Shown here: positions 8,059 to 26,361 of the stretch, one piece after another
Numbering within the stretch: position 1 is the first letter of the stretch
How the letters are laid out: each line of letters opens with the position of its first letter
IMG/VR virus record: IMGVR_UViG_3300029825_000006
Location: 2,646-66,645 of that record
From: a virus
Taxonomy: Duplodnaviria > Caudoviricetes
Reading direction: 5' to 3' (one strand)
DNA length: 64,000 bases
Notes under the pieces: model-generated
Told to the model about the DNA's origin: nothing
Seen by the model: only the letters and a program-made list of their open reading frames with translations
The model's database searches: none
Position numbers and translations under genes: made by a program

Positions 8059-8885
8059 AATTCTCCTTTCTTTAAAGCCTCTATTAATTTAATTTTACTC
8101 ATTGTTATAATTGTATGATTTCGATAATCATATACTTTATATGAAGATTTTGTCAAATCTTTTTCATCTAAAATTGGTTCTGGAGAGCATCTACAATTTG
8201 GAAATTCTCCCGCGTTACCCCACATTGTATCTAAATTTGGTTTTTCATTATCTTTATTTCTCCAAAATACTACGACATCATACATTTCTCGATGTGATTT
8301 TCTTGTTCGAATATCATTTGAAGACAGCCAAATATATGCTACACTTCCTAAATCTCTTGCACGATTTTCCATAATTGCAGTTTGTAATTTTGCAGTTTCA
8401 GTTCTAGCAATTAATTTTGAATTTTTATGACCTTGCTTTCTTAGTTCTTTTTCAAAAGAACCTCGACCAATGCTACCTTCTAAAACTTGTTCTCGTAATG
8501 TTAGAATATATTTTTGTTCATATACTTTTAATACTTTTTCAGGAATAGATTTTATCATTTTAAAGTTATGCTCAGTTGCTTTTTTTAATTGCTCTAATTG
8601 AAATTCACTAAATGATTTAACATATACTTTATAACGTCTTGCTTTAGCAGCATCAAAATATTTTCTCCAAATTCCACGTTCATGAGAAAGTCCTTTTTTT
8701 GCTAATTCTTTAGAAAACTTTTTAGCAAATCTTTCATATGCATCAGTTTCGCCTAGTCTTAAAATAGTATTTTTAATTTTATCTTCATTCATTGTTTCAA
8801 ATCTTCGAATTGTTGATGTCGAAAATACTTTCTTAAAAACTTCTTTATAAATTGCTTCGATTTGTCTTTCTATTTGTTTACTCAT
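8055..8885 (-). CDS. MuF / SPP1 gp7-like minor head protein
   Basis: LIARTETAK, YIWLSSNDIRTRKSH, PNCRC motifs. Confidence 0.92.
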   Translation of the reverse strand: MSKQIERQIEAIYKEVFKKVFSTSTIRRFETMNEDKIKNTILRLGETDAYERFAKKFSKELAKKGLSHERGIWRKYFDAAKARRYKVYVKSFSEFQLEQLKKATEHNFKMIKSIPEKVLKVYEQKYILTLREQVLEGSIGRGSFEKELRKQGHKNSKLIARTETAKLQTAIMENRARDLGSVAYIWLSSNDIRTRKSHREMYDVVVFWRNKDNEKPNLDTMWGNAGEFPNCRCSPEPILDEKDLTKSSYKVYDYRNHTIITMSKIKLIEALKKGEL

Positions 8886-10642
8886 ATTTTTAATTCCTTA
8901 ATTTTAATAATATTAACATATGTTTTAATTTTATCATATATTTTGTCAATATAAAACTGATAATCGATTTTAGTAATCAAATCATCTTTTACACTATTTG
9001 ACAATATTTCATTATTATATACGAATATATTATCAGGTAAGTTTGAAACTTTAGAACGTTTCGTTTTACCCTCAGGATTGCATTTATATAACATTCTTTT
9101 TATTTTATCGTTCGATGCAAAGACACGATTTACAGATTGAACTTCCTCAATGTTAGAATATCCTTCGTAATCTTCTTGAAGTTCTACATATTTAAATGTA
9201 CCCTTTTTTGCGATATATTGAAATAGTTTTAAGTCACTTTTATTTTCAAAGACTGTTTCTTCAGGCATTTTATCTAACATAAAATAATTTACTATAGCAT
9301 CGCCAATTATAAAAGCATCTTTACTTTGTGGGAAAATGTATCTACGAGTATAATGCGCAATGTCACCCCCTAAAGCAAATATTTTATCGTCTTGCTTATA
9401 CATATAACAATTTACATCTCTTTGAACAATATCAGAAATATGTTCAATTTTTAAATTAAATCCTGTTCGATTTTGCCATTCGTTAACAATTTCAACAATT
9501 TCTTGTTCACTGATACCTTCATTAGGGACAACGATAATACCATCAGTATTTGATTGTACTAATTCTATTTTTCCTTCTAATTTTTCTAATAAGTCTACTA
9601 AAAATATTTGACCAGTCATTGTTATAAGTCTTCCATGATATGGGTCGTAAAACCCCAAATGTTCATTTAATGACGCACCAAAAACTGCCAATAAAATTGT
9701 CTTTAATACATTTCTTTTTCGAGGGTTAATTTTTTTAAGTCGTAATTGTTCATAATACATCTCTTCGTATACTTTTTTATATTCATCAGGAATTGAACGA
9801 GGTAACAATCCGTATTTAATCATTATTAAATTATAATAACCACTAACGTCAAAATATAATGCGTTTTTTGCTTTATATATTTTTCTTGCACCATGAATAC
9901 CGCCAACACCAATAATATGTTCCACACCGCAAATAGTTGTTGTTAATTTTGCATTTTCAGATAGAAATTTTTCTTCAAGATAAAATTCTAGCACTTCTTT
10001 ATTTTTAATAATTAAATTATCGTAATGTTTAGGTTTTACAACCCAACTACTAATTCCATCAATTCTTTCAGCATGTAATACTTTTTCAGCAGTCATTGCT
10101 TCAGTATAACTCAATGCTTTCATATCAAGTTTAAATTCAGCAATTGTTTCTAATTGTAAGATAAATGCGTCTTTTACTTTAATAAAATTATCTAACGTTT
10201 GTTCTAAGTCGTCAAAGTTATATAATTCTACGATTTCTTTTTCTTCATTAGTTAATCGTCTTTGTAAATTAAATGATACTTTTGACTCAGAGATTTGTTT
10301 ACCATCAAGTGCTTCTGTAACTTTTAACGAAAAGAAACCAGCGGCTGACATTATATCATAATAGTGTAAATGTATATTTAAATATTGTCTTTTATCTCGT
10401 ATAATTATGTCATCATTAATTTTTTTCGGATCGTTATCTTTTAAACATGCTTGCAAAATAAAATTATCATAATGTTCATTATTCCAGCCTATCCATATGC
10501 TTTCTTTATTTTGTAAATAGAACTTTTTAATTTCGTCTATTGACCAAGTTTGAAATAATGTAATATCATCGTTTTCGATAATTAACGCGCCTAATAAAGT
10601 ATCATATAAAAATACTTCAAAGTCAAATATTATTATTTTCAT
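8882..10642 (-). CDS. Family-B-type DNA polymerase with 3'-5' exonuclease
   Basis: Exo motifs DFEV, WNNEHYD, YNFDD; polymerase motifs YFDVSGYY, KTILLAVFG, SNTDG. Confidence 0.88.
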   Translation of the reverse strand: MKIIIFDFEVFLYDTLLGALIIENDDITLFQTWSIDEIKKFYLQNKESIWIGWNNEHYDNFILQACLKDNDPKKINDDIIIRDKRQYLNIHLHYYDIMSAAGFFSLKVTEALDGKQISESKVSFNLQRRLTNEEKEIVELYNFDDLEQTLDNFIKVKDAFILQLETIAEFKLDMKALSYTEAMTAEKVLHAERIDGISSWVVKPKHYDNLIIKNKEVLEFYLEEKFLSENAKLTTTICGVEHIIGVGGIHGARKIYKAKNALYFDVSGYYNLIMIKYGLLPRSIPDEYKKVYEEMYYEQLRLKKINPRKRNVLKTILLAVFGASLNEHLGFYDPYHGRLITMTGQIFLVDLLEKLEGKIELVQSNTDGIIVVPNEGISEQEIVEIVNEWQNRTGFNLKIEHISDIVQRDVNCYMYKQDDKIFALGGDIAHYTRRYIFPQSKDAFIIGDAIVNYFMLDKMPEETVFENKSDLKLFQYIAKKGTFKYVELQEDYEGYSNIEEVQSVNRVFASNDKIKRMLYKCNPEGKTKRSKVSNLPDNIFVYNNEILSNSVKDDLITKIDYQFYIDKIYDKIKTYVNIIKIKELKI

Positions 10643-11070
10643 TTTCCAGTACTTCCTAAACCACGATTACCCCTTTCAGTGTTTGGTAATTCTTGAACAA
10701 TATCAAGATATGGATTTAATATTGAATAAACTACTAGACTGCAAACTCTTTGACCTGCTTTAATTTCAATTTTATTCTTTGAGCAATTTGTTATAATTAA
10801 ATGAATTTCTCCAGTATAATCTGGGTCGATTATTGAAGTTTGAATTAATAACCCTTTTTCAGCAATAGAACTCCTAGGAACTAACATACCTGCATGACCT
10901 TCAGGTATTGCTACTCCAATTTCTAGACCGATTGTCTTAGTTTCTAGTATTTCTAATTCTAAATCACAAGGCATAAAAATATCTAAACCACTATCAGGTA
11001 AATGCGATTTTTTTGGTAAAATCGTACTTTCTTTAAACAATCTAATTTTCATATTTTCCCCCCTAAACAT
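10639..11070 (-). CDS. dut: Trimeric dUTPase (likely start at 11052)
   Basis: DSGLD, PRSS, IIDPDYTGEI, RGNRGLGSTG motifs. Confidence 0.95.
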   Translation of the reverse strand: MFRGENMKIRLFKESTILPKKSHLPDSGLDIFMPCDLELEILETKTIGLEIGVAIPEGHAGMLVPRSSIAEKGLLIQTSIIDPDYTGEIHLIITNCSKNKIEIKAGQRVCSLVVYSILNPYLDIVQELPNTERGNRGLGSTGK

Positions 11071-11962
11071 TTAATAATACTTTAATATTTGCATCAACAA
11101 TTTTATCAATTGTATTGTAATATTTTCTTAAAAAATTCCATTGTTTTATTTGATTTTCCGTATAATCAATATTATCAATGTCTTTGATAAAACCAGTAAT
11201 ATCATCTGAATATTTAAAATATTTTCGCGTATTACTTCCATGAATTATAATCGTTCCACAAGGAATTGCTTCATGAACTATTGTTTCCATATGGTCAAAT
11301 GGTTGAATTAAATTTATGTCTAAATATAAAAATTGACATTTTTTAATTTCGTTATATAATTCATCATTAGTTTTACCTATATGAATATCGTATGAATTAT
11401 CTAAATTATATGTTTCATCCAATTCTTTAGAAGTTAAAATTACTTTTTTCCAATGTTTAAATTTTTCTTGAGATGTATAATTTATAAATTCGTTTAAACC
11501 TTTACTTTTTCTACCAACAAAACAAATACTATTTTTATCTTTATCTTTGAAATTAACCCAATGTTTGTTATGAATTTCATAATAATTTGAGCCTGCTTGT
11601 TCATAAGCAATTACTTTAAATTTTTTCAAAAATAATTCTTTATATAAATCACTATCTTTCGAAATAACAATATGTAAATCGATTAATTCTAATAAACCAT
11701 CGATATTAAAAATTGCATTGTTTTGATATATTCGTCTATCACAGTAATGATGTATAAATACTATTTTTTTACCATTATTTTTATAACTAGACCATTCGTT
11801 TTTAATTTCTTTATTAAATGGTATTTGTGCATAAACTAAAACATCAGCATCTTCTTTTTCTGTAAAAAGATTTCTTTTTTTGACTTCATTCAATAAGAAA
11901 CCCTGCATCTTTTGTTGCCCACTAATTTTGTCGCAAGACATATCAACGTATAACTTTTTCAT
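11063..11962 (-). CDS. GT-B-fold glycosyltransferase (GT4-like)
   Basis: IVFIHH, ICFVGRKSKG, ELYNEIKKCQFLY, ETIVHEAIPCGTIII resemble the GT4 E-X7-E donor-binding region. Confidence 0.7.
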   Translation of the reverse strand: MKKLYVDMSCDKISGQQKMQGFLLNEVKKRNLFTEKEDADVLVYAQIPFNKEIKNEWSSYKNNGKKIVFIHHYCDRRIYQNNAIFNIDGLLELIDLHIVISKDSDLYKELFLKKFKVIAYEQAGSNYYEIHNKHWVNFKDKDKNSICFVGRKSKGLNEFINYTSQEKFKHWKKVILTSKELDETYNLDNSYDIHIGKTNDELYNEIKKCQFLYLDINLIQPFDHMETIVHEAIPCGTIIIHGSNTRKYFKYSDDITGFIKDIDNIDYTENQIKQWNFLRKYYNTIDKIVDANIKVLLNV

Positions 11963-12061: not shown

Positions 12062-12520
12062 TTAATTATTTATAATATTCATATATCTTATAATATCTTT
12101 AGCAATATTATAAGGTGTTATTTTAGAAGTATTATAATTTAAAATTTTTAAATTATGTTCAGTTATTAAAATTTTCTCAGCATTTTCAAAAGCCATTATA
12201 TTTTCGTCATAATTAATCTTTGGCTCATTTGTATATTTACATCTAATATTCCAATCTTCTTCATCAACTGCTAAAAGAACATTTACAATGTTTTTTTGTT
12301 GAGATACTTCATAAGAATAATCTCTTTTATATAAATTTGAATATGCTATCATTGATATTATTCCTCTAGAATATACTAAATATCTTTTTTCAGATAATTC
12401 TGAAATATAGAACGCGATTAAATCTTTTCCAGTTTTATCAATACCATCTAAAACAATAGTATAATATTTTAATTTTTTATCCATTATAATACCTCTATTT
12501 AATATATTTAAAAATTTCAA
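12062..12520 (-). CDS. dNMP/thymidylate-kinase-like P-loop protein (likely start at 12484)
   Basis: IVLDGIDKTGKD P-loop; YSRGIIS at the position of the DR motif. Confidence 0.7.
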   Translation of the reverse strand: MKFLNILNRGIIMDKKLKYYTIVLDGIDKTGKDLIAFYISELSEKRYLVYSRGIISMIAYSNLYKRDYSYEVSQQKNIVNVLLAVDEEDWNIRCKYTNEPKINYDENIMAFENAEKILITEHNLKILNYNTSKITPYNIAKDIIRYMNIINN

Positions 12521-13043
12521 TTAATGAATTAACTCTAATACCATTAAATTCATAATCAATATTTTCAGAATTTATTACATTTATATATAAAGCGTCACCA
12601 TTTATTCTTTTAATATTATTTAAATTATCGACGTTGTCTTCAACAACTAAATCTACATGACCAAATTTTTCAAAAATTGTAAAGTCTTTTTTAGCAGAAC
12701 AATATATATAATCATAAATTAATCTATTTTTCTTAAGCCAATTAATAGTTCTTTCTAATTGATTATTTTTAAATAAATCTCTTGAAGTAATTATATATAT
12801 TAAATATCCGGTTTGCTTTAACAAATTTAATAAAATTACTGCATTTTCTTTAACGTTTGCATCATTTTTAAATTCTGAATTAATATAATTTTCTTTCATC
12901 TTTCGATAATCAATAAATGATAGTGCACTTTTAATTTCATGTAAAGTTTTAAAATTTGTTTTTAAAGAATAATTGCAATAATCAATAAGAGTTTGTGGAT
13001 AATTGTTTAAAACACCATCAATATCAATTATTGCTTTTTTCAT
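12495..13043 (-). CDS. HAD-family 5'(3')-deoxyribonucleotidase-like protein
   Basis: IDIDGVL motif I, IITSR motif II, K, VEDN motif IV. Confidence 0.85.
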   Translation of the reverse strand: MKKAIIDIDGVLNNYPQTLIDYCNYSLKTNFKTLHEIKSALSFIDYRKMKENYINSEFKNDANVKENAVILLNLLKQTGYLIYIITSRDLFKNNQLERTINWLKKNRLIYDYIYCSAKKDFTIFEKFGHVDLVVEDNVDNLNNIKRINGDALYINVINSENIDYEFNGIRVNSLIEIFKYIK

Positions 13044-13935
13044 AATTATCGATGTTACTCAAAATAGAGTTTTCAATTTCTTTATATTTATTATAACCAT
13101 ACATTTTAGTCATATCACCATATACAGTTTCCATATTTTCTGTATGTTCAGTCTTATTTTGCGGTAATGGTTTGTACCATTTAGAACTTAATTCATGTTT
13201 CGACTCACTGCAATAAAATTGATTTCTAGCATGAATATTAATATTTAAAGGGTATACTTTTTTTAATACTTCATAAATTCTTAACGCGAATACATTATCT
13301 GATTTTGGTTGAACTTGCATATCAATTCGTTGATTTAACATTTTCATAAAATCAAACAAACTTCCTGTAACATAATAAAATGTTTCCATCGTTCTAGGTA
13401 AAACCAATCTTGCATCTTGAATATGAACTTTATCTGTTAAATTATTACATATGTCATCATATAATTTATATGAGTCTTGCATAATTTTTACGTAACGTTC
13501 TTTATATTCTTTAGGAGTATCTTCTAAAAAACTTGGCACAATTAAGTTTCGATTTGTAATGTATTTATCTCCTGTACAATCTGCAGCAAATGACAAACCA
13601 TTATGTCGAATTAAATGCGTAACATCATGTGTTGTAATTCCCTCTAACAATATTGTTATTTGAACTGATTTCATTGCAGTTGGAATTAATTTTCCATCAA
13701 AAAATAATTGCATGATTTTATCTCTATCATTAATTGTTAAAGTATCTCTAAATTCCTGAATATTTTCGTTCCATGTACCCATAACTAATTCTGGTATATA
13801 ACTTTTCAAAATTTCATAAGGCGTATAATTTAGTAATGTTACTTTTATATTTTCTAAATCATTAACTAATTTATTGTTTGTACTAACAATATTTGTCCTT
13901 TTTTTAAATCTTTTATTTTTTAAATTAAATTCCAT
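13024..13935 (-). CDS. thyX: ThyX-like flavin-dependent enzyme with an atypical active-site motif
   Basis: LIRHNGLSF and DARLVLP...LNQR align with ThyX; RHRX7S appears as RHNX7C. Confidence 0.75.
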   Translation of the reverse strand: MEFNLKNKRFKKRTNIVSTNNKLVNDLENIKVTLLNYTPYEILKSYIPELVMGTWNENIQEFRDTLTINDRDKIMQLFFDGKLIPTAMKSVQITILLEGITTHDVTHLIRHNGLSFAADCTGDKYITNRNLIVPSFLEDTPKEYKERYVKIMQDSYKLYDDICNNLTDKVHIQDARLVLPRTMETFYYVTGSLFDFMKMLNQRIDMQVQPKSDNVFALRIYEVLKKVYPLNINIHARNQFYCSESKHELSSKWYKPLPQNKTEHTENMETVYGDMTKMYGYNKYKEIENSILSNIDNYEKSNN

Positions 13936-14717
13936 TCGTATCCCTCCCTTTTCAGTACATATTTAATTATATCTTCTTGTTTTATTTGAGTTTTTGTAGC
14001 GTATCGACCAATATAAATATATTCGACGTTATCTTTTACGTCAAACTCTGTATATATTTTTGGTTTGTCGTAATAATTTAAAATTTTTATATGTTCTATA
14101 TGAGGTTCACTGATACATTCTGTATAATTTTTAGAATATCTTTTAACGTTTGATGTTAAATTACAATCGTATACATAGTCAAAATCTAAAACATCATTGT
14201 TTGTTTTTACTACGTATTCTACAGAACCTTCATTATTTATAAATTCTTTAGTATTATCATAAACTTTTGAATTTATAACGTTTGGCATAGTATCAACAAT
14301 TTTATCTTCATATCTTAATTTTAAATCTTCAAATACTACGTTTAGTAATATTCCATAATATGAATTTAAATTGTCACTCATTGAAGATTTTGTTTTTATT
14401 CTATTTTGTTTAGATAAATAATTATTATACATTTCTTGAGTAATAATTTCATAAATTTTACCATTAAAGAAATAACCAACTTTTATTTTCTTTGTATATT
14501 TTGATATATTTTCATTATTATAATTTATTTTAAATATATCAAAATAAAATTTTAATTCTTGTTCGTCGTTATATTTTAAAAATAAAATCGGTGTTATAGA
14601 ATTACCCTTATTTATACCTTTATTTTTATCGTATATGATAAAATCTTTATTTAAATAATCTAAACATGTAGCAATAACATACGTACCTAGACTATTTCCA
14701 ACGACTATATTTTTCAT
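13920..14717 (-). CDS. Divergent Rossmann-fold protein resembling UDP-galactopyranose mutase / FAD oxidoreductases
   Basis: N-terminal IVVGNSLG...IIYDK; C-terminal YIGRYAT comparable to the UGM GRLA/GY motif. Confidence 0.45.
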   Translation of the reverse strand: MKNIVVGNSLGTYVIATCLDYLNKDFIIYDKNKGINKGNSITPILFLKYNDEQELKFYFDIFKINYNNENISKYTKKIKVGYFFNGKIYEIITQEMYNNYLSKQNRIKTKSSMSDNLNSYYGILLNVVFEDLKLRYEDKIVDTMPNVINSKVYDNTKEFINNEGSVEYVVKTNNDVLDFDYVYDCNLTSNVKRYSKNYTECISEPHIEHIKILNYYDKPKIYTEFDVKDNVEYIYIGRYATKTQIKQEDIIKYVLKREGYEWNLI

Positions 14718-19499: not shown

Positions 19500-19937
19500 T
19501 TAATTAATTTTGATTAAATTAATATTTGCATGATTTGCAATTTTCATCGTTAACTCATATTCTTTATGATAGATTTCTTTAAAATAAATATTTTTAATAC
19601 CATGTTGAATTAAAATATTTAAACAATTATGACAGGGTGAATGAGTTATATAAATATCAGTGTCATTACAACTTATTCCCATTCTACAAGCATTTGCAAT
19701 AGCATTAAGTTCTGCATGAATTACATAATTATATTTTTCTTCAGAATGCCAATCAAATTCTAATGTCGATTTTCTTGCTGAGCCATTATAGCCAATTCCT
19801 ACTACGCAACCATCTTTAACTAATACTGCGCCAACTTTTGTTTTAGGGTCTTCAGAACGCTCTGAAACTACTTTTGCAATTTTAAAATATAATTCTTCCC
19901 AACTAATTCTATTTTCGTTTTCGTTTAATTCTAACAT
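19500..19937 (-). CDS. dCMP deaminase
   Basis: RSEDP.TKVGAV, HAELNA, PCHNC. Confidence 0.93.
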   Translation of the reverse strand: MLELNENENRISWEELYFKIAKVVSERSEDPKTKVGAVLVKDGCVVGIGYNGSARKSTLEFDWHSEEKYNYVIHAELNAIANACRMGISCNDTDIYITHSPCHNCLNILIQHGIKNIYFKEIYHKEYELTMKIANHANINLIKIN

Positions 19938-25809: not shown

Positions 25810-26361
25810 CTATATCACCCCTTCTTTTAAATCTATTCTAAATTCTTCTAATTGTCGTTTAATTTTCCTACTAACATGTGGTTGCGATATGTTCAATTTC
25901 TTTGAAATTTCTTTTTGTTTATAGCCAAAAAGATATAATTTTAGAACTTTTCCACAACGCGAAAGAACAAAATCATATCTTTCTTTCTTAATTAAATTTT
26001 CAGAAATATTTTCATTTTCATCAGGAATTGTATCGAGTAAATCAATATTATCAAATATTTCTTTATCATATGAAGTTACTATCATTTTATTTTCTTTAGA
26101 TTTTTTACGTCTCAAGTGGATTTTAAATAAGTTTAACCAACAAAACATAGAGAATGTTGTAAAGTTTGCTTTTTCTTCATTAAATAAATGTCGTTTATTC
26201 CATGAATGTATTACTAATTCTTGAACAAAATCTTCATCTTCATAACCTATAACATGATGCTTATGAACAAAACTCCAAGCCAATAAATATAATTGACTAA
26301 TTATCTCATTTTCTAAAGTAGAATTCATTAAGTCTACTTTCTTTACTTCGTTTAGTTTCAT
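25810..26361 (-). CDS. Phage-encoded sigma-70-family (ECF-like) sigma factor
   Basis: Region 2-like EDFVQEL...FNEEKANFTTF; region 4 HTH GYKQKEISKKLNISQPHVSR. Confidence 0.8.
   Translation of the reverse strand: MKLNEVKKVDLMNSTLENEIISQLYLLAWSFVHKHHVIGYEDEDFVQELVIHSWNKRHLFNEEKANFTTFSMFCWLNLFKIHLRRKKSKENKMIVTSYDKEIFDNIDLLDTIPDENENISENLIKKERYDFVLSRCGKVLKLYLFGYKQKEISKKLNISQPHVSRKIKRQLEEFRIDLKEGVI

Follow-up and report, generated by a model that had tools for sequence, protein, structure and literature searches.

A phage-borne ThyX-fold protein with an exchanged active site as a candidate pyrimidine deoxynucleotide C5-hydroxymethylase

There is a single gene of the ThyX type in the window analysed here, a stretch of 64,000 nucleotides (positions 2,646 to 66,645 of IMG/VR record IMGVR_UViG_3300029825_000006, Caudoviricetes) that comprises nearly the whole of a 66.6-kb virus record rated complete by CheckV, with about 26% G+C. 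The gene is located on the minus strand at 13024-13935 and encodes a protein of 303 amino acids (aa) in which many residues of the active site of ThyX, the flavin-dependent thymidylate synthase (FDTS), are exchanged. The locus therefore raises the question of whether this protein still produces deoxythymidine monophosphate (dTMP) or carries out another reaction. The reading that we prefer, to which we give a probability of roughly 55%, is that it is a ThyX-fold C5-hydroxymethylase of deoxycytidine monophosphate (dCMP) or deoxyuridine monophosphate (dUMP) whose product would feed the formation of glycosylated DNA. With the same rough probability, it would represent a large family of flavoenzymes, carried by phages and having the ThyX fold, whose products are pyrimidine deoxynucleotides with a hydroxymethyl (or some other functional) group at C5, in this phage supplying a glycosyltransferase like T4 DNA alpha-glucosyltransferase (AGT), possibly with Cys120 as the C6 nucleophile for cytosine.

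The homology to ThyX and the fold of the protein are secure, given a Pfam match to Thy1 (PF02511; E-value 3.8e-15, 56.6 bits against a cut-off of 24.8, covering aa 86-229 only), a match of the subfamily profile to Mycobacterium tuberculosis ThyX (E-value 7.8e-30), a confident model and the superposition of that model on solved structures. The AlphaFold model was built from 54 sequences and has a predicted local distance difference test score (pLDDT) of 95.5 and a predicted template modelling score (pTM) of 0.91. When compared with the ThyX structures of M. tuberculosis and Thermotoga maritima (VIA-align), it gives Z scores of 15-16 over some 200-210 aligned residues at a root-mean-square deviation of 2.5-3.0, and the comparison with the PolB structure gives a Z score of 14.9. 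Thus, the preserved ThyX fold that had been proposed in a preliminary description of the gene is confirmed. At the C-terminus, about 70 residues form an extension that is not part of the canonical fold. With the single sequence as query, ThyX is barely found among solved structures (E-value about 0.01-0.1), and the score against the NCBIfam thyX equivalog TIGR02170 is 31.5 bits, under its cut-off of 87.9.

The rewired ThyX motif and the active-site loop are encoded at 13567-13620 on the minus strand, the translation of which is THLIRHNGLSFAADCTGD; from this translation and from column statistics against canonical ThyX, the residues of interest are T106-H107...R110-H111-N112...A118-D-C120-T-G122-D123. 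In a HMMER alignment with solved ThyX chains, LIRHNGLSFAADCTG stands opposite LVRHRHFSFSQLSQR, and the canonical RHR-x7-S-x-R becomes RHN-x7-C-x-G. An alignment with ThyX families, which the preliminary description had suggested as a check, was run with MAFFT and has the same register (canonical segment Q-L-x-RHRxxSYSQxSQRY). That description had read T-H..R-H-N..A-D-C-T-G in place of R-Q..R-H-R..E-x-S-x-R, with Cys in place of the signature Ser and with the arginines of ARxVLP and LNxR retained, and the translation and both alignments agree with it on each of these points.

In the numbering of T. maritima ThyX, which is used here for all canonical residues, R74 and Q75 are replaced by T106 and H107, R80 by N112, E86 by A118, S88 by C120 and R90 by G122. 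Kept are R78 and H79 (R110 and H111), the ARxxLP arginine R147 (R176) and the LNxR arginine R174, which activates dUMP (R203). The alignments add changes that had not been listed before. Tyr91 is Asp123, the Asn of LPN has become a new arginine (R181, giving LPR), and the segment GKLIPTAMKS (13666-13695, minus strand) stands where canonical ThyX has GH.S..EH, so that the folate/flavin-stacking His53 is Ile84 and Glu58 is Lys89. In comparison with canonical ThyX/FDTS (TM0449 and M. tuberculosis ThyX; PF02511, TIGR02170; EC 2.1.1.148), this protein therefore shares the fold together with R78, H79, R147 and R174, but it lacks H53, Q75, E86, S88, R90 and Y91 and, like the rest of its own clade, also R80, E58 and R165. 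Gained in turn are Arg181, a QPxxDN motif and the C-terminal extension.

What these exchanges might mean can be judged from the roles of the residues in canonical enzymes. R174 activates dUMP by favouring deprotonation of N3, whereas S88 and Y91 hydrogen-bond the hydroxyl of the flavin carbinolamine and assist its departure, and in the mutants S88A, R90A and Y91A the carbinolamine is consumed more slowly, with an effect that reaches more than 100-fold (PMC8316439). Mutation of Y91 makes flavin oxidation about 1000-fold slower, and H53, which forms a pair with Y91, stacks against the pterin ring of folate or the isoalloxazine of the reduced flavin (PMC11940539). When these roles are set against the columns of the subfamily, the arginines that bind and activate the nucleotide are kept, and the whole set of residues that control methylene transfer and folate stacking is exchanged throughout the subfamily.

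These residues also bear on the main rival explanation, in which the protein is a divergent but ordinary FDTS that supplies dTMP to an A+T-rich phage, with Arg181 and Asp123 compensating for what has been lost. We consider this unlikely. The retention of R78, H79, R147 and R174 is what would be expected of such an enzyme, but none of H53, S88, R90 and Y91 is left, and mutating S88, R90 or Y91 singly cuts canonical turnover by orders of magnitude. The score below the equivalog cut-off likewise speaks against it. Structures of S88A and S88C mutants of ThyX are present in the PDB, and both mutants are reported to keep activity.

The rewiring is not confined to this phage. When 1.84 billion cluster representatives were scanned exhaustively with HMMER, only 114 clusters (50% identity level) were found at an E-value of at most 0.001, 61 of them reaching 1e-10, and a word-indexed search yielded 279 proteins, the best 120 of which are 72-100% identical. 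Among 45 full-length representatives the signature comprises L/I-P-T in place of G-H-x-S, T-H-L-x-R-H-R, S-F-S-A-x-C-[TS]-G-D, A-R-x-x-L-P-[RK] and Q-R-x-D-x-Q-x-Q-P-x-x-D-N, and the hallmarks of the family are H53 to L/I (Leu or Ile in 43 of the 45), Q75 to H, E86 to A, S88 to C, R90 to G and Y91 to D. The sequence C-T-G-D is present in all of the best 120 of the 279 relatives and in 35 of the 45 distant cluster representatives, and Cys with the G/A-D pair is found at each of 85 phage loci compared. This conservation across near relatives, loci and most representatives indicates that the rewiring is not chance drift.

Two points of emphasis in the preliminary description fare less well. The Asn of RHN is found in this sequence alone, with Ser in 108 and Thr in 11 of the best 120 of the 279 relatives, and across the subfamily the R80 position varies among N, S, T, Q and R, most members keeping Arg. 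RHN is therefore rejected as a meaningful motif, since 119 of those 120 relatives have Ser or Thr there. The proposal of a Cys nucleophile, as in ThyA-type hydroxymethylases, survives in part. In 10 of the 45 representatives the Cys120 position holds Thr, Ser, Ala or Gly, and these are interspersed with Cys members in the tree. Because the Cys is not universal, it cannot be obligatory for the whole family, and a family-wide role as the nucleophile is rejected; within the clade of the window protein the Cys is invariant, and there it may have such a role.

A maximum-likelihood tree places the 24 canonical ThyX sequences together in a single clade on a long branch (support of 100 in the Shimodaira-Hasegawa-like approximate likelihood ratio test, SH-aLRT), apart from all subfamily rows, among which one truncated row had been mislabelled by length. 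The window protein is located inside a fast-evolving clade of 11 rows. A literature search found no paper on this ThyX-like subfamily, and those of its members that carry an annotation (that of the cultured Geobacillus phage GR1 in GenBank and one JGI record) are labelled thymidylate synthase.

A related phage in which the slot of the ThyX-like gene is filled by a different enzyme bears most directly on the reaction. In the window, one co-oriented run on the minus strand holds, in order of transcription, genes for a 265-aa orphan protein, the ThyX-like protein, a nucleotidase, a kinase, a 299-aa protein that is the predicted AGT-like glycosyltransferase, a deoxyuridine triphosphatase (dUTPase) and a DNA polymerase. 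The 56.9-kb metagenome contig L099 is syntenic with the window, and the genes in common include those for a primase-like protein (47% identity), an SSB-like protein, an AAA_24 ATPase, a nuclease, the dUTPase (77%), the polymerase (52%), MuF and TerL (62%). The AGT-like glycosyltransferase of L099 is 39% identical and occupies the same position. The kinase, which resembles thymidylate kinase (TMK), is present as well (L099:8857-9996), where it has the same G-K-D P-loop and is the N-terminal portion of a longer protein (379 aa) that carries an extra C-terminal domain of about 240 aa.

Where the window has the 265-aa, ThyX-like and nucleotidase genes, L099 has a gene for a 247-aa ThyA-family protein (L099:8148-8891; PF00303, 95 bits), and its 20.8-kb locus contains no ThyX-like gene and no homologue of the 265-aa gene. 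The best solved relatives of this ThyA homologue are the CMP hydroxymethylase MilA (79 bits) and the dCMP hydroxymethylase of T4 (67 bits), with thymidylate synthases all at 60 bits or less. It has Asp at the ThyA Asn177 position, which in the ThyA family is the classical cytosine determinant. A ThyA-type hydroxymethylase and the ThyX-like gene are thus alternatives beside the same kinase, glycosyltransferase and polymerase, which is a non-orthologous swap. The presence of a hydroxymethylase-type enzyme in this slot argues against an ordinary thymidylate synthase. Because L099 keeps the glycosyltransferase without the 265-aa gene and the nucleotidase, these two genes track the ThyX-like gene and not the glycosyltransferase.

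Further evidence comes from phages that have both a subfamily member and a canonical thymidylate synthase. There are 46 long phage records in this comparison, 14 of which carry a second Thy1 gene that scores 118-182 bits, where the subfamily gene scores 39-87 bits. The 12 second ThyX proteins that were compared residue by residue are of canonical size (210-230 aa), are encoded within about 4 kb of the subfamily gene and keep H53, E58, S88, R90 and Y91. A ThyA-family gene above the Pfam cut-off is found in three of the 46 records, two of which also pass the ThyA equivalog cut-off. Overall, another thymidylate synthase (canonical ThyX or ThyA) is present in 16 of the 46 records, and in 5 of the 26 that are at least 90% complete. 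Given the 16 records in which the two occur together, often within 4 kb, the subfamily is probably not a redundant dTMP synthase, and this too counts against an ordinary synthase. The suggestion in the preliminary description of a changed substrate or chemistry is thereby supported, if indirectly, by the failed equivalog cut-off, the separate clade, this coexistence and the ThyA-type swap in L099.

Several observations speak against the favoured reading. The ThyX-like gene is the sole thymidylate-synthase-like gene in a genome of 74% A+T, which has just one Thy1 gene and no PF00303 match for a ThyA. Together with the dUTPase, a dCMP deaminase and the TMK-like kinase, it would complete an ordinary pathway to deoxythymidine triphosphate (dTTP). 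The closest relatives of the gene, in L012 and L013 (74% identity; both records rated 100% complete), are accompanied by the 265-aa gene and the nucleotidase, but a kinase or glycosyltransferase of the two families searched was not detectable there. All of these observations are in keeping with an ordinary synthase. Among the 46 long records no glycosyltransferase of the TAGT family was found, and glycosyltransferases are not family-wide neighbours; the common neighbours are instead a deoxyribosyltransferase-like protein, an HD nucleotidase and a dUTPase_2/MazG-type enzyme. ThyA and ThyX also coexist in bacteria without neofunctionalisation. The assignment of the 299-aa protein as AGT-like is at the level of predicted fold, and we infer the use of flavin and folate, the hydroxymethyl outcome, the identity of the base and the modification of DNA itself. 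On the other side, searches of the window genome revealed no TET/JBP dioxygenase and no C5-cytosine methyltransferase, and ThyA is missing as well, so that none of these enzymes could supply a hydroxymethyl base instead, which we count in favour of a hydroxymethylase.

The protein is most likely a neofunctionalised phage enzyme of the ThyX fold that still uses reduced flavin and a one-carbon donor. Perhaps the reduced flavin takes a one-carbon unit from methylenetetrahydrofolate (CH2-H4folate) or from formaldehyde. In this phage the 265-aa protein, and in the GR1 clade a nitroreductase, might maintain the flavin in its reduced state. The one-carbon unit would then be passed to C5 of a pyrimidine nucleotide bound through R176 and R181, with R203 polarising it. 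Elimination of the flavin would leave an exocyclic methylene that is not reduced, and either water might add to it, with Asp123 as the candidate base, or Cys120 might trap it transiently. The product would be a 5-hydroxymethyl nucleotide (5-hydroxymethyl-dCMP or 5-hydroxymethyl-dUMP), and the flavin would stay reduced. The TMK-like kinase could phosphorylate this product, the phage polymerase could incorporate it, and the AGT-like glycosyltransferase could glycosylate it within DNA, with the dUTPase, the dCMP deaminase and the nucleotidase shaping the pyrimidine pool.

The base that would be modified may be either of two. Cytosine is favoured by the cytosine-type enzyme of L099, by the AGT and TAGT precedents and by the coexistence with canonical thymidylate synthases in other phages. 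Attack of a Cys at C6 would also be chemically sensible for cytosine, because cytosine cannot be activated through deprotonation of N3. Uracil is favoured by the retained equivalent of R174, by the phage's own dUTPase and dCMP deaminase, which produce dUMP, and by the lack of an obvious dCTPase.

A different C5 chemistry on a pyrimidine nucleotide, such as the conversion of dCMP to 5-methyl-dCMP, an O2-dependent 5-hydroxylation by reduced flavin, or the transfer of the methylene to another nucleophile, is in our view rather improbable. Neither the rewiring of the carbinolamine loop nor the loss of the folate-stacking His specifies hydration by itself, and putative neighbours of the flavin-reductase type (the nitroreductase in the GR1 clade and the 265-aa protein here) would suit such a reaction. 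There is also precedent in a recently described flavin-binding enzyme that makes 5-hydroxy-dCMP for glycosylation, although this synthase is a ThyA homologue, unlike the ThyX-fold protein here (PMC13326640). However, the enzyme that replaces the ThyX-like gene in L099 is of the hydroxymethylase type, the adjoining glycosyltransferases are of the AGT and TAGT types that act on hydroxymethyl bases or their glucosides (PMC13216743), and 5-methylcytosine would give a glycosyltransferase no handle.

Still less probable, and in our estimation very unlikely, is that the substrate is something other than a free deoxynucleoside monophosphate (dNMP), whether a nucleoside, a ribonucleotide as for PolB, or a polynucleotide, or that the protein is a catalytically dead paralogue with a structural or regulatory role. 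The changes at R74, Q75, S88 and R90, all of which are phosphate- or ribose-contacting positions, would fit this explanation, as would the family-wide neighbours that handle nucleosides (the deoxyribosyltransferase-like protein and 5'-nucleotidases), and PolB sets a precedent for a ThyX paralogue with shifted sugar specificity. Yet the equivalent of the phosphate-binding R147 is kept and a new Arg or Lys at position 181 has been gained, a nucleotide kinase follows the gene at many loci, and the strong conservation of a new polar signature (C-T-G-D and QPxxDN) argues for catalysis.

A C5-hydroxymethylase with the ThyX fold would stand apart from the systems already described. To our knowledge, all characterised pyrimidine hydroxymethylases that feed hypermodification of phage DNA have the ThyA fold. 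The genomic logic here, in which a candidate C5 enzyme is accompanied by a putative dNMP kinase, a predicted glycosyltransferase of the DNA type, a dUTPase and a polymerase, is like that of the pathways built on T4 gp42, MilA or the SPO1-type dUMP hydroxymethylase together with the T4 gp1 kinase and the alpha- and beta-glucosyltransferases. The ThyA-fold hydroxymethylases are nevertheless unrelated in fold to the ThyX-like enzyme, which is predicted from homology to be flavin-dependent. The protein has the ThyX fold and not the ThyA fold with its equivalent of the catalytic Cys146. A conserved Cys is available in both, but here it belongs to the active-site loop of ThyX and some family members lack it.

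Among neofunctionalised ThyX proteins, only one has been characterised. This is PolB, a C5-methylase of UMP and dUMP from polyoxin biosynthesis, which is reported to share the flavin- and folate-dependent mechanism of ThyX. PolB is likewise a ThyX-fold paralogue with an altered substrate preference. However, it is a bacterial enzyme of secondary metabolism that still makes a methyl product, whereas the protein described here is phage-borne, and the likeness between them is one of structure only. An idea similar to ours has been put forward by Kropinski et al. (2018, PMC5977210) for gp130 of Bacillus phage SP-15, a Thy1-family protein that they suggested might act as a hydroxymethyluridylate synthase. 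That phage carries glucosylated, hypermodified uracil, and its Thy1 paralogue is present alongside a canonical-looking ThyX, gp9. Kinship with gp130 beyond the fold was considered and rejected (hhalign probability 0.9%, no common signature, and a length of 413 aa for gp130).

If the favoured reading is correct, phages have a second way, of independent evolutionary origin, to make the precursors of hypermodified DNA, and a well-studied flavoenzyme mechanism has a new outcome, with water or a thiol and not hydride trapping the exocyclic methylene. The family is frequently encountered in phage metagenomes and its annotated members are labelled thymidylate synthase, so that base modification in such phages would go unnoticed. 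Modified DNA matters for the evasion of restriction and CRISPR, for artefacts in sequencing and for the selection of therapeutic phages. The presence of the cultured Geobacillus phage GR1 in the family makes the question directly testable.

There are several overlaps of stop and start codons in the co-oriented run around the ThyX-like gene. Its start is overlapped by 16 nucleotides by the stop of the 265-aa orphan gene (13920-14717, minus strand, as are all window genes given below). The orphan has no match in Pfam, PHROG, NCBIfam, or the sequence and profile searches of the PDB, and an hhalign comparison with a 361-aa neighbour found at other loci was negative. Its ESM Atlas neighbours carry FAD/NAD(P)-binding families and are Rossmann flavoproteins (score 0.91, template modelling score about 0.55), which we treat as a lead that it is possibly a Rossmann-type flavoprotein and a redox partner. 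There are 20 metagenomic homologues, and the gene accompanies the ThyX-like gene in the window, L012 and L013 and is missing from the L099 locus.

The stop of the ThyX-like gene is overlapped by 20 nucleotides by the nucleotidase gene (12495-13043), which encodes an NT5C-like 5'-deoxy(pyrimidine)nucleotidase of the HAD superfamily (Pfam NT5C E-value 6.6e-5, just under the cut-off; PHROG 2643, 5'-3' deoxyribonucleotidase). Homologues of it adjoin the ThyX-like gene in L009, L012, L013 and L014. The kinase gene (12062-12520) encodes a small TMK-like P-loop protein with a weak match to Pfam Thymidylate_kin (E-value 0.005), and we propose that it is the kinase of a modified dNMP. Its P-loop has G-K-D where G-K-T/S is usual, and its homologues recur beside ThyX-like genes and in L099.

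The 299-aa protein (11063-11962) is a candidate DNA glycosyltransferase of the GT-B type. Its model (pLDDT 92.5) is nearest in fold to T4 DNA alpha-glucosyltransferase, with Z scores of 23.3-24.1 over 285-294 of the 299 residues for five entries of that enzyme and 19.4 for the next GT-B protein. There is no Pfam match (PF11440 included), and relatives of this AGT-like family are missing from IMG/VR, with a single one turning up in the metagenome scan. The dUTPase (10639-11070) is of the trimeric type (Pfam dUTPase E-value 2.4e-29; PHROG 135), and no MazG- or dUTPase_2-type enzyme was found in the window genome. The phage DNA polymerase (8882-10642), which is directly downstream of the module, matches PHROG 1252 (E-value 3.1e-97) and nothing in Pfam. 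The dCMP deaminase is encoded at 19500-19937 (PF00383, 87.6 bits; PHROG 174, E-value 4.6e-42).

Some relatives in the clade of the window protein have a comparable arrangement. In L009 and L014, where the ThyX-like proteins are 50% and 39% identical, the order is nucleotidase, kinase, ThyX-like, TAGT and dUTPase. The TAGT gene (PF20691, above cut-off) follows the ThyX-like gene within about 220 base pairs, as the next gene in L014 and with an 81-aa open reading frame in between in L009. PF20691 takes in the T2/T6 glucosyltransferase that acts on glucosylated 5-hydroxymethylcytosine (PMC13216743). Phages of the L072 type have two weak GT25-like genes near the ThyX-like gene. A link to glycosyltransferases across the whole family was sought and not found, with TAGT missing from the 46 long records and AGT-like relatives nearly none.

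Across the 85 loci, a nucleoside-deoxyribosyltransferase-like protein is encoded near the ThyX-like gene at 71, a YfbR-like HD nucleotidase at 57 (typically abutting the ThyX-like gene), a homologue of the TMK-like kinase beside it at 24, and an NAD-dependent sugar epimerase/dehydratase at 17. A replicative polymerase and a dUTPase_2/MazG-type enzyme, sometimes fused to NT5C, are also among the usual neighbours. The recurrent order at these loci (L012-L091) is dUTPase_2/MazG, nucleoside-deoxyribosyltransferase-like, YfbR-like HD nucleotidase, ThyX-like and TMK-like kinase, and it spans phages whose replication modules have PolIII-alpha, PolA or PolB polymerases. Large phages that have a canonical ThyX in addition to the subfamily gene (e.g. 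L081:8991-9926) encode, directly upstream of the ThyX-like gene, a fusion of a dUTPase_2/MazG-like pyrophosphatase with an NT5C 5'-nucleotidase, and genes for an Fpg/Nei-like DNA glycosylase and an NAD-dependent sugar epimerase/dehydratase are located nearby.

In phage GR1 (L001; OK896991, 22824-35432), the subfamily member, 38.6% identical to the window protein, is located between two TMK-like paralogues, with a nitroreductase gene directly upstream. An annotated 459-aa glycosyltransferase without a Pfam match is encoded nearby, and the GR1 genome has no ThyA. Farther along the window, at 25810-26361 on the minus strand, there is a gene for a small protein with PHROG matches to RNA polymerase sigma factors.

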